Assembly (NCBI GenBank): GCA_964542585.1
Contig: CAZIUI010000011.1
Span: forward strand, 5,831-69,830
Source: an uncultured Sphingobacteriales bacterium
Lineage (GTDB): Bacteria > Bacteroidota > Bacteroidia > CAILMK01 > CAYYUA01
Direction: 5' to 3'
DNA length: 64,000 nt
Made by a program: the position numbers and the translations under genes. The notes below the pieces were generated by a model. That model made no database searches, was not told the origin of the DNA, and was given only the letters and a program-made list of their open reading frames with translations. This document shows positions 53,912 through 59,310 of the stretch, in pieces (within the stretch, counting starts at the first letter, position 1; each line of letters starts with the position of its first letter).

Positions 53912-54877
53912 CTACTTGTAGTATGTAAAGTCACCGTTCAGCGTTATGTTCTTAGAACTGCTATCAGCTTTTAGTTTGTAATTCGTAATCTGCCCATGAA
54001 GTTTTTCCTGGTTGTTGATATTGATTTCTACGGTGCCGTGGCCGGATGGTAACCAGTTCGTATTAGCTTTTTTGATGGATATATAAGCAAATTCTTCAGG
54101 AGTATTTTGACCTAAGGCACTTGCTGAGTAAGTACCGGTACCTAAGTTATCCGGTGTGTAAAAAGTAATCCCAAGGATATAATGGAGTTGGCCAGAATTA
54201 CTTTCCGATAGAATTAAAGATAATCTGCCTTGAGGTTTATCAGGACCTGAGTTTGGTTTTTTGGTTAATTGGGAAGTATATACCGTGTTCAGATTTTTTT
54301 GAATATAACCTGATAACTTGATTGCTGCATTGGAAAGTTTTTTAGGAGCACTAAACTGCCCATTGAGTTTAATGGTCTTTCCGGATTGGGGATTGGTTAA
54401 CGCAACATTTGTGATGGTTCCTTTTATCCGCGAATCGTTATTTTTGTTAAGATCAATAGTTCCGGAGGTACCGTTTGAAACGTTATCATTGCCATTATGC
54501 CGGATCCCAATAATAGCCGCTTCATCCGGGATACTGTCAGTTTCTATTCCTGGACGAATTACTTCTATTGAGCCATTTTTCAAAGGAGGTTTCCGAGCGA
54601 ATAACAATATAGCTACGCTATCACCAGCCTTATTTTCCCATCCCAGGGTCAGAAGATATCCAACATCTTCGGCCCGTTTTTTAACACTTGGTTTTATATT
54701 GGCTTTGATCTGATCATTAACGGAACCAGACAGGGTGATTTTATTCTCAGCATTCCCGCTACTGTTATCATCATCACAGCTAGCAAGCCCCAACAGCAGA
54801 AAAAGGGCCAAACGTACAATAAGGCCATTTGGTAAGGACCGAAGTAGAAACATAGGGCTCAGTTTAGGGGTAATCAA
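53912..54877 (-). CDS. Surface lipoprotein paralog P2 (two-module)
   Basis: Lipobox LGLASC + DDDNSSG; two modules ending ...IDLNKNNDSRIKGTITNVALT...TIKLNGQFSAPKK and ...VEININNQEKLHGQITNYKLK...NITLNGDFTYYK. Confidence 0.6.
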   Translation of the reverse strand: MITPKLSPMFLLRSLPNGLIVRLALFLLLGLASCDDDNSSGNAENKITLSGSVNDQIKANIKPSVKKRAEDVGYLLTLGWENKAGDSVAILLFARKPPLKNGSIEVIRPGIETDSIPDEAAIIGIRHNGNDNVSNGTSGTIDLNKNNDSRIKGTITNVALTNPQSGKTIKLNGQFSAPKKLSNAAIKLSGYIQKNLNTVYTSQLTKKPNSGPDKPQGRLSLILSESNSGQLHYILGITFYTPDNLGTGTYSASALGQNTPEEFAYISIKKANTNWLPSGHGTVEININNQEKLHGQITNYKLKADSSSKNITLNGDFTYYK

Positions 54878-55079
54878 AATAAAAACGTCTTCAACTTAAA
54901 GCTGATCTTATTTTGGTATTACGACACTTTTTCGACTTGTATACAATAACTTTACAGTATTAAGGATTTATAGGTATGAAATTTAAGTCGGTAAGATTGG
55001 TCCACCTTGCGGCTCTCCAGTAAAACAGTCAGAAAGCCGCATAAAGGTGAAAGGTGTTATTGAAGGGCTATTAAGCGAT

Positions 55080-56069
55080 TTATTTAGGAACAGCAAAAGC
55101 CCCGTTAGCCGTCACCGTTTTATTATCGCCCTCTAATTTGATACTGTTAATTGTGCCTTCAATTCGGTTTTCGTTGTTTTTAGTGACCTCAACATTCCCG
55201 GATTGATCCACCGTTTTATAGTCAGTCCCTTCATAGGTAACATTTAAGTTAACGAACTGATCCGGCACATTGGAAGGATCCTGAACATCTTCATTGTTAA
55301 ATGCTTCCACCGTATCAGTCTCATTTCCCTCAAGTCCGGTAATGCCAATAGAAACGGTATTGGTGATGTTATCCTCACCTTGCCATGTAATGTTAAGGGC
55401 GCTGCCACCTAACTGGAAATTCGGTTGGCTCCTGGCTTTGATGTCCTCTTGCTCATCACCCGTCAGGTTGACAAAGTTGGTAGAGTCGCTTTCATTCTCG
55501 TTTTCATTGGCATTGCCTTTCAGGGCGTTAAACTCGGCATTGATGGTAACCTGCGCATCATCATCCGGGTTGGGATTATTCAGCGTAACATCATCAATGG
55601 TACCGGCTACCCGGTTGTCGTTATTTGTGCTAATGGTCACACTACCGGACTCGCCACTGAAATTCCAGGATGTTCCTTCGTACACTATGGATACGGTGGA
55701 AAACTGACTTGACGCATTGTTCAGGCTTTCCAGAATATCATAAGTACCAGTTTCGATCTTATTACCGGCATTAGTTACCTCGGCTTCTACCTGATTGTCC
55801 TGCGCGTCTTTCCAGGATACAGCGAGGGTCGTTATCGGGTTATCGTTTTCCCCGTCTTCCTGTTCTATTTCCACTTCGATGTCCTCATCCGGCTCGATCT
55901 CAGCCTCCACAGCACCTGTAAGGGTTCCTGAGGCCTCATTCTTCTGGAGTTCCGGATCATCAGGACTGCTGCTGCCATCATCGTCATCATTACAGCTGGA
56001 TAGGCTAACAAGAATAGGAGCCAGGGCAATAATCCCAAAGGATTTCATAAAAATCTTCCAGGTTTTCAT
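55080..56069 (-). CDS. Surface lipoprotein paralog P3 (two-module, highly acidic)
   Basis: Lipobox VSLSSC + NDDDDGSSSPDD; modules ending ...VTISTNNDNRVAGTIDDVTLN...VTINAEFNALKG and ...VEVTKNNENRIEGTINSIKLE...TVTANGAFAVPK. Confidence 0.6.
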   Translation of the reverse strand: MKTWKIFMKSFGIIALAPILVSLSSCNDDDDGSSSPDDPELQKNEASGTLTGAVEAEIEPDEDIEVEIEQEDGENDNPITTLAVSWKDAQDNQVEAEVTNAGNKIETGTYDILESLNNASSQFSTVSIVYEGTSWNFSGESGSVTISTNNDNRVAGTIDDVTLNNPNPDDDAQVTINAEFNALKGNANENENESDSTNFVNLTGDEQEDIKARSQPNFQLGGSALNITWQGEDNITNTVSIGITGLEGNETDTVEAFNNEDVQDPSNVPDQFVNLNVTYEGTDYKTVDQSGNVEVTKNNENRIEGTINSIKLEGDNKTVTANGAFAVPK

Positions 56070-56312
56070 AAGGTTCTTGCTTTAAAGTTTTCACTGATTC
56101 AACTACAAATATAGGGGCTTAAGAGCGCCTAATAGTTGCACTAAGCAAGCTCTCTTTTCTACTGTTCAATCTGCAAGCTATCGCATTGCTCAGCATAGTA
56201 CCCATTAAAAAGGCCCAATCAATTCAAGTTGACTGGGCCTTTTACTAAGTAGACAGTTCACCAGAATTTTTAATCCTCCGTTTATACTTAAATTCAAAGA
56301 GACTTAACCTAT

Positions 56313-58079: not shown

Positions 58080-58361
58080 TAAAAGAAAGTGGTAAATCTT
58101 TGCTATTTCTTAAGCTATTATATTAGTATTGTACAACTACCTCGGTAATTCAGATGTAACAAATAATTATGGACTTTTAATGGGTATTTTTTTAGAGCCT
58201 AAACTAAAGCATTTTAAAAATATCATGCTTAAAACCAAAAATAGGAGGTGTAAGCAACCTTAATTGGTATAGCTACTGATTACCGGCTCTCCTATGTAAT
58301 CTGAGAAAGTAAAACTATGGACAGACAAGCTTTTTCATCCTAATAAAAAGTTCTGATCAAA

Positions 58362-58399
58362 TAAAAAGCCCGCTTAGGAAAATATAAGCGGGCTTTTTG
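58362..58399. terminator. Bidirectional intrinsic terminator downstream of P6
   Basis: Perfect 10-bp inverted repeat AGCCCGCTTA...TAAGCGGGCT flanked by AAAAA (5') and TTTTT (3'); on minus strand sits 27 nt after the P6 stop. Confidence 0.55.
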
Positions 58400-58425
58400 A
58401 AAAACTTAGAATTAATTAAATCATT

Positions 58426-59310
58426 TTAGTTGGTGGCAGTGAAAGTACCTCTAACGGTAACTTCATCCTCACTTTGGGCTGGGCTTAATACAACGTCAGT
58501 TAATTCACCTTCAACGTTACTACTATCATTCGTGTTTAAGCTTACAGTTCCTTGCCCAGTTGCCAACCAAGTGTTACCGCCGTATGTTACTGTCATAGAC
58601 GCATAGTTATCAGGAGTGTTATCACCGCCAATGTTACTTTGCATCACCACATCCAATTCTCCAGTGGGAGCATCGGCTGGAACAATTTGGATAGTGGCAG
58701 CGGATCCTTCCTGATTACCTAATCCAATATTTTTGTGGTTAACCGGCTGATCCAATGTCTCAAGGGTAGCTGTTCCAAAAGAAACGGTATCTTCAGCTGC
58801 ACCTGTTAAGGTAATTTGATTATCGGATCCACTACCGCCACCATCTTTGGATGCGTTAAACTCGCCATTTAGGGTGGCTGTGCGATCACCATTCTGTTCA
58901 GTCAGCTCAACATCATTAAGGGTACCAATGATCTTATTTTCATCATTCGTAGTAACTTCAACAGAGCCGCCTGTTCCTTGCCATACAGATGTGCCTACTG
59001 TTACATTTACAATTCCGTCTTGTCCAACATTGTAATTGCCGGTACCATTTTCAGGGACAGTAACACTGACAGAACTTGTGTCAGCAGACCAAGTGATTGT
59101 TATTGCACCTCCCTGTGAAGCAACTTGTGGTGCACCATCTGCATTAAGGTCTAATTCTACATCGCCGGATGTTGAGGCTTCAGCGCTGTTGTCACCAATA
59201 TCAGGGCCACCATTACCCCCATCATCATCACTACAGCTGGACATGGTCATGGGTGCCATTGCAACAGCACCAATCATCATTGTGTTAATAAGTAATCTTT
59301 TAATGGTCAT
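58426..59310 (-). CDS. Surface lipoprotein paralog P6 (two-module)
   Basis: Lipobox MTMSSC + SDDDGGNGG; modules ending ...VEVTTNDENKIIGTLNDVELT...TATLNGEFNASKD and ...VSLNTNDSSNVEGELTDVVLS...VTVRGTFTATN. Confidence 0.6.
   Translation of the reverse strand: MTIKRLLINTMMIGAVAMAPMTMSSCSDDDGGNGGPDIGDNSAEASTSGDVELDLNADGAPQVASQGGAITITWSADTSSVSVTVPENGTGNYNVGQDGIVNVTVGTSVWQGTGGSVEVTTNDENKIIGTLNDVELTEQNGDRTATLNGEFNASKDGGGSGSDNQITLTGAAEDTVSFGTATLETLDQPVNHKNIGLGNQEGSAATIQIVPADAPTGELDVVMQSNIGGDNTPDNYASMTVTYGGNTWLATGQGTVSLNTNDSSNVEGELTDVVLSPAQSEDEVTVRGTFTATN

Follow-up and report, generated by a model that had tools for sequence, protein, structure and literature searches.

A family of tandem lipoprotein modules related to DUF6252 beside a sodium:solute symporter gene in a Sphingobacteriales genome

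Six lipoprotein genes and a symporter gene

We analysed a 64,000-nucleotide stretch of DNA (the window) from an uncultured Sphingobacteriales bacterium of the phylum Bacteroidota (GenBank contig CAZIUI010000011.1), for which an array of proteins with one or two related modules each had been predicted from the sequence. On the minus strand of 53912-59310 we found five open reading frames (ORFs; genes A to E), matching the array that had been claimed. A tblastn search of the five array proteins against the window detected a sixth, weaker copy at 51389-51970. The family in the window amounts to six genes and ten modules, with four two-module and two one-module genes. This is exactly the count of the original prediction once the sixth paralog is included; the range given there for the array does hold five genes, but the sixth, counted there as P1, falls outside it.

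All six genes lie on the minus strand and encode lipoproteins. Gene A (58426-59310) encodes a protein of 294 amino acids, in which the lipobox MSSC is followed by SDDDG and by two modules with profile envelopes at residues 38-156 (58843-59199) and 159-294 (58429-58836); the exact protein is a singleton (P0002) in the NCBI-derived collection. Gene B (57461-58042; 193 amino acids; LSSC-SDDDD) has a Gly/Asn-rich tether and then one module at residues 46-193. Two modules are encoded by each of the remaining array genes: in gene C (56313-57287; LTSC-DDDDN) they are separated by a DPDPDPDP linker, gene D (55080-56069; 329 amino acids; LSSC-NDDDD) is the best-conserved array member, and in gene E (53912-54877; LASC-DDDNS) the modules abut with no linker. 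The longest ORFs of genes C (324 amino acids) and E (321 amino acids) start at GTG or TTG, and in-frame ATG codons lie at 57278 and 54853. Because the protein database holds the shorter ATG forms (P0007 and P0006), the longest-ORF starts are probably too early, and these ATG codons are likely the true starts, giving proteins of 321 and 313 amino acids, respectively. The sixth paralog (51389-51970; 193 amino acids; LGSC-DTNNS) has one module and is identical to P0001.

The sixth paralog is separated from the five-gene array by a sodium:solute symporter gene (51963-53774, minus strand; 603 amino acids; Pfam SSF, 1.9e-38). In NCBIfam the symporter matches only the sss superfamily, with no substrate-level assignment. 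The start of the sixth paralog overlaps the symporter stop by 8 nt. Upstream of the array, a PagL-like outer-membrane β-barrel protein is encoded at 60271-61389 on the minus strand (372 amino acids; Pfam PagL, 1.7e-14). In the direction of transcription, the order is PagL-like gene, a 960-bp gap, A-B-C-D-E, symporter, sixth paralog and a convergent DUF3267 gene. The gap (59311-60270) between the PagL-like gene and gene A is AT-rich, and its GC content of about 36% is the minimum of the window. It contains an unannotated plus-strand ORF of 90 amino acids (59976-60248) with no Pfam hit, and has no Rfam match; the Rfam scan of the window found a tRNA and nothing else.

We then investigated the transcription units. 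A generic scan for sigma-70 promoters and terminators gave only background level, and the terminators were established by RNA folding. Gene A is followed by a 14-bp perfect hairpin and UUUUUAUUU (58363-58398, minus strand; -21.4 kcal/mol, z -4.9), and gene C by a 15-bp hairpin and UUUUUAAU (56208-56243, minus strand). Terminator-like hairpins with a U-run follow gene B (57401-57434, minus strand) and gene E (53846-53877, minus strand; with CUUUUUUAUU), the latter between the array and the symporter gene. Downstream of gene D there is a hairpin without a U-run. These structures indicate that the array genes are separate transcription units, and coupling to the symporter is confined to the sixth paralog. 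By eye, an exact TAnnTTTG, which we take to be the Bacteroidetes -7 promoter consensus, was seen in front of genes A, B and D (59300-59345, 58050-58095 and 56075-56125), at a distance of about 30-50 nt from the ATG. This is consistent with separate promoters.

A signal peptide with a lipobox cysteine is present in 6/6 proteins. In the five array proteins the cysteine opens an acidic run (CSDDDG, CSDDDD, CDDDDN, CNDDDD and CDDDNS in A to E) with three to four aspartates in positions +2 to +6, followed by a Gly/Asn/Asp-rich tether and the module or modules. The sixth paralog (CDTNNS) is alone among the six in lacking an acidic export signal. Two or more acidic residues in +2 to +6 are found in at least 37 of the 56 family proteins examined; the lipobox pattern missed a further 12, among which several can be seen to have this acidic motif. 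The runs of the five array proteins match both experimentally defined surface-export signals of Bacteroidota lipoproteins, namely K-(D/E)2 or Q-A-(D/E)2 of Capnocytophaga canimorsus (PMC5080379), and CS(D/E)2 of Bacteroides thetaiotaomicron SusG, which also drives packing into vesicles (PMC6222051). Judged by these motifs, the five array proteins are probably surface-exposed outer-membrane lipoproteins, and the array fits the class of Bacteroidota export-signal lipoproteins that includes SusG, SusD/E/F and BtuG/H. The likeness lies in the lipobox cysteine, the acidic motif at +2 to +5 and the tethering to the outer membrane (PMC5080379, PMC6222051), whereas the globular domains of those proteins are unrelated to the window module. 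Unlike the Sus/Btu-type systems, the window array has no adjoining SusC/TonB-dependent transporter or polysaccharide utilization locus.

The repeated module, its relatives and its predicted fold

The ten modules are true homologs. BLASTP between modules gave E-values of 1e-8 to 1e-13, and in a leave-one-out test each module reached 31.6-101.6 bits with a profile made from the remaining nine, compared with a maximum of 15.0 bits for shuffled modules (200 per module). All the motifs originally quoted for the module (TITWSAD/SISWTNT/AVSWKDA, ETGTY/GTGNY, VYEGTSW, TNNDNRVAGTIDDVTL and TxNGxFNAxK) are present in the translations and in the ten-module alignment. The modules measure 117-150 residues, longer than the 110-130 residues first estimated. 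The idea that the motifs are a low-complexity coincidence without a real domain, for which only the D, G, N and S bias of the linkers speaks, is practically untenable and was rejected on the leave-one-out scores, the exhaustive profile search and the confident structural model described below, as well as the orthologs in other genomes.

The pairwise identity between modules is only 15-37%, indicating that the duplications are old. A neighbor-joining tree of the modules branches so deeply that it is compatible with the copying of one two-module ancestor as well as with independent duplications of modules. At the DNA level, the five array genes have a single repeated stretch in common, which encodes the lipobox cysteine and aspartate run (AGCTGT...GATGATGATG on the coding strand; 70-94% identity) and lies at 54768-54783, 55975-56011, 57184-57220, 57948-57984 and 59216-59252. 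Outside this stretch, the array genes have diverged beyond recognition at the DNA level. This confinement again points to old duplications, and nothing suggests that gene conversion occurred recently. The proposal made from the sequence, that a compact β-rich fold was duplicated both within and between genes, is borne out by the homology of the modules and by an all-β model.

We found no Pfam or NCBIfam model that reaches threshold with any of the six proteins or ten modules. Word-indexed protein searches recovered just one and eight family members, and an exhaustive search with hidden Markov models was used instead. Among 1.84e9 representative proteins it found 55 at E<=1e-3, and the ten-module profile (A1) matched homologs in other organisms with E-values down to 1e-72. 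Two matches (P0023 and P0052) were excluded as repeat-protein artefacts. The remaining ones are nearly all lipoproteins of 160-330 amino acids with one or two modules, and none has a name beyond 'hypothetical protein'. Four of the weakest matches are DUF6252 proteins above the Pfam threshold (38.8-54.4 bits). In P0047 the family model and the DUF6252 model cover the same residues, and in P0035 one family module precedes a DUF6252 domain scoring above the Pfam threshold. The window modules themselves do not reach the gathering threshold of Pfam DUF6252 (PF19765; 27.2 bits): the highest module score is 18.3 bits (E 0.0028), the whole protein A scores 11.6 bits, and the nine other modules have no hit. 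Sub-threshold matches to Aegerolysin, SPP1_Dit, FtsH_ext, Mfa1 and NigD were dropped as noise, and only DUF6252, the one lead that recurred, and the LpqH fold (see below) were kept.

In a profile-profile comparison with hhalign, a profile of 45 modules (A3) matched a profile of seven threshold-passing DUF6252 domains (A5) with 96.5% probability (E 7.2e-10, 98 columns), which places the modules in the DUF6252 superfamily as a divergent branch that has no annotation. At the profile level we regard the window modules as homologous to DUF6252, though they stand outside it by the Pfam criterion. The C-terminal pattern G-x-V-x-I-T ... R-I-x-G-T-F ... x-N-G-x-F is common to the two, and DUF6252, like the window family, occurs in lipoproteins and in tandem two-domain proteins (P0047-P0049). 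Unlike DUF6252, the window modules have an additional N-terminal strand pair (L-S/T-G-D ...) outside the hhalign match, which begins at query column 34, and they form a small family of their own with the 55 representatives. This rare family is a new, unannotated sister branch of the uncharacterised DUF6252 superfamily. The original prediction had named, as one thing that would tell against it, that the modules belong to a DUF described before and of known structure. The remote relationship to DUF6252 goes some way towards this, but the match is below threshold, and no solved structure is detectable by sequence for either family: PDB sequence searches with profiles A1, A3 and A5 gave nothing meaningful, just chains of antibodies, talin and ATP13A2 with E>0.2, and the search with A5 detected no solved DUF6252 structure.

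The structure of a single module was predicted with AlphaFold2 (AF2), a step that had been suggested together with the profile search. With the 45-module alignment, the gene B module gave a confident model (pLDDT 95.3, pTM 0.89), which is all-β with about 11 strands and one short helix. A model of the two-module protein D shows two folded domains (mean pLDDT 83, pTM 0.54), and residues 1-11 (the N-terminal tether) and 162-170 (the inter-module linker) are below pLDDT 50. This suggests two independent domains on flexible linkers, like beads on a string. Conservation is concentrated in the C-terminal third of the module (0.53 vs 0.35-0.38 elsewhere), and insertions and deletions are concentrated in the middle. 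The near-invariant positions across the 45 modules are Gly and Phe only, with no invariant polar or catalytic residues.

Foldseek found no match to the module model at E<0.09 in the PDB or at E<0.03 among viral structures. On the predicted model, the nearest solved fold is that of the mycobacterial 19-kDa lipoprotein antigen LpqH (PF05481; PDB 7FDS, 4ZJM and 4XIN), which the module shares without a detectable sequence relationship; the LpqH/Myco_19_kDa Pfam model scores 15.1 bits, below its cut-off of 23. LpqH and the window proteins are both lipid-anchored envelope proteins, in which a flexible tether is followed by a small all-β domain. The window module is about 35 residues longer, however, and the phylum and envelope type differ. 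Slam-dependent surface lipoproteins and haemophores (the TbpB/LbpB C-lobe, PmSLP, hemophilin and HtaA CR) have eight-stranded barrels, but they are found in Proteobacteria and Actinobacteria, and their export routes differ from that of the window family. The original prediction had noted a resemblance to lipocalin/calycin barrels. The barrel part of this holds, and the small antiparallel barrel of the fold speaks for the modules being true members of that family carrying a hydrophobic ligand. Such membership is nevertheless most improbable: there is no lipocalin-type Pfam hit, the Foldseek matches to lipocalins are not significant, and the model has about 11 strands and lacks the C-terminal helix. 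The modules are not lipocalins.

The locus in related genomes

We located related loci with the symporter as an anchor and by looking up family members. A comparable neighbourhood exists in four related metagenomic genomes, with varying gene number and order. The closest locus, L003, from a Sphingobacteriales metagenome-assembled genome, has a PagL-like gene, three family genes, the symporter and a one-module gene. At least three family genes, the symporter, a one-module gene (with a 4-nt overlap in L083) and a DUF3267 gene are found in L083/L086; L084 has two family genes and then the symporter; and L082 has a PagL-like gene followed by B-type, D-type and E-type genes. Synteny of the array and the symporter is thus seen in the window, L003, L083 and L084. 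The order of D and E is swapped in L083 and L084 as compared with the window, L003 has no E-type gene, and for gene C none of the related loci has a clear ortholog (about 30% identity at best). Gene and module number therefore differ among relatives, a point that the original prediction had proposed to check. A distant family member, P0061, lies in an unrelated genomic context.

The genes of the locus have diverged to different degrees. The symporter is 75-81% identical to its orthologs, and the PagL-like protein is 66% identical to its ortholog in L003. The identity of gene D to its orthologs (62-72%; L003, L082, L083 and L084) is about equal to that of the PagL-like neighbour. It is 58% for gene B (L082), 43% for gene A with its closest ortholog (L003), 41-45% for the sixth paralog, which occupies the same position after the symporter in L083 and L003, and 34% for gene E (L083 and L084).

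Two kinds of incomplete ortholog were seen. In a two-module ortholog at L003:7508-8604, the last strands of the second module are in another frame (8401-8604, corresponding to profile positions 107-139), which points either to a pseudogene with a frameshift or to an error in the assembly. The E-type orthologs at L083:461-1396, L086:1173-2108 and L087:1159-2094 end at about profile position 120 and lack the final NG-x-F-x-A-x-K strand. The recurrence of this end in three independent samples suggests that the module is truly truncated and that sequencing error is not the cause.

Elsewhere in the window, Bacteroidota markers are present, namely GldB_lipo (1.1e-91), CHU_C and, twice, Por_Secre_tail. 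A 2971-amino-acid protein (14264-23179) contains 22 PKD-domain matches and the CHU_C type IX secretion signal, and the two Por_Secre_tail proteins are encoded at 808-2871 and 38901-41861. Pfam gave no hit at E<=1e-5 for a minus-strand ORF of 1476 amino acids (3509-7939). A trehalose-6-phosphate synthase/phosphatase fusion (Glyco_transf_20 and Trehalose_PPase; 740 amino acids) is encoded at 10945-13167, and MurQ (N-acetylmuramic acid 6-phosphate etherase; 3.9e-106) at 62268-63086, about 8.5 kb from the symporter gene.

Possible roles of the lipoproteins

We favour the explanation that these genes encode a lineage-specific family of Bacteroidota outer-membrane lipoproteins that serve as surface-tethered, non-enzymatic binding barrels, and we give this statement as a whole a probability of about 0.6. 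Its architecture, fold and homology part is very likely correct, and the surface-binding function is put forward tentatively. Each protein consists of a signal peptide with a lipobox cysteine, an acidic run (in the five array genes), a flexible tether and one or two independently folding β-barrel modules of about 130-150 residues, and the family grew by old intragenic duplication and by tandem gene duplication. The conserved C-terminal hairpin (G-x-V-x-I-T-N-N-x-x-R-I-x-G-T-x-N-D-V-x-L ... T-L-N-G-x-F-x-A-x-K), shared with DUF6252, may be the structural scaffold, and each paralog may owe a binding surface of its own to the first two thirds of the module, where strands and loops are variable and rich in indels. 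The barrels, tethered at the cell surface, are read as non-enzymatic binding modules because no conserved polar residues suggest catalysis. The sixth paralog, translationally coupled to the symporter and without the export signal, would probably reside on the periplasmic face of the outer membrane.

Several observations weigh against this explanation. Surface exposure is a prediction from a motif. DUF6252 appears in none of the searchable literature, and the LpqH PDB entries are likewise absent there. The similarity to LpqH is structural only: hhalign gave E-values of 0.29 with a single verified LpqH sequence and 0.36 with a 13-sequence profile, and LpqH was not recovered by Foldseek with the module model. 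Among 76 loci with homologous symporters from other lineages, family members were found in L003 only, and no comparable lipoprotein lies downstream of the symporter in any of these other-lineage loci. The linkage to the symporter is thus confined to close relatives, so the synteny may mean shared ancestry and not shared function.

There are two main rivals to surface binding. First, the lipoproteins might be abundant, interchangeable surface proteins without a defined ligand, whose diversity would alter the cell surface or protect it from phages, predators or antibodies. The separate transcription of paralogs that are only 15-37% identical agrees with this, as do the gain, loss and reordering of genes among relatives, the truncated or frameshifted orthologs and the faster evolution of A (43%), E (34%) and the sixth paralog (41-45%) as compared with the symporter (75-81%). 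We consider such a coat unlikely, however. Inverted repeats of the invertible-promoter type and long DNA repeats for phase variation or gene conversion were searched for and were not found. The conservation of gene D at 62-72% fits a fixed function, and no structural similarity to phage proteins was detected.

Second, the surface barrels might bind a small nutrient, which the periplasm-facing sixth paralog would hand to the symporter, so that all would form one solute-capture system, perhaps together with the PagL-like protein. The order of array, symporter and one-module gene is kept in the window, L003 and L083, and that of array and symporter in L084. The one-module gene overlaps the symporter stop in both the window (8 nt) and L083 (4 nt), it is the one paralog without the acidic signal, and in the window, L003 and L082 the array adjoins a gene for a PagL-like outer-membrane protein. 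This reading is quite unlikely all the same, since the array genes are monocistronic and are set apart from the symporter gene by an intrinsic terminator. Symporter homologs in other phyla (48-58% identity) have no such partner, so that the linkage is phyletically restricted, and the syntenic genomes are all close relatives, as the symporter identity of 75-81% shows. Distant family members such as P0061 are in unrelated contexts, and the symporter matches no substrate-level family model. A more specific form of this idea is a SusCD/TonB-independent uptake route of Bacteroidota, in which LpqH-like surface barrels capture a solute and the periplasm-facing paralog delivers it to the symporter, possibly via the PagL-like barrel. 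We regard this route as very unlikely; if true, it would provide the first physiological function for DUF6252 and for the LpqH fold.

LpqH is an immunodominant mycobacterial lipoprotein, and to our knowledge no physiological role has been established for it or for DUF6252. Expansions of hypothetical surface lipoproteins are common in Bacteroidota. Here, a rare family recognised by no Pfam or NCBIfam model now has a confident predicted fold, and is tied to DUF6252 by sequence profile and to LpqH by structure only. Its six diverged copies, with their predicted split between the surface and the periplasm, may serve as a natural experiment on lipoprotein sorting and barrel binding in Bacteroidota.

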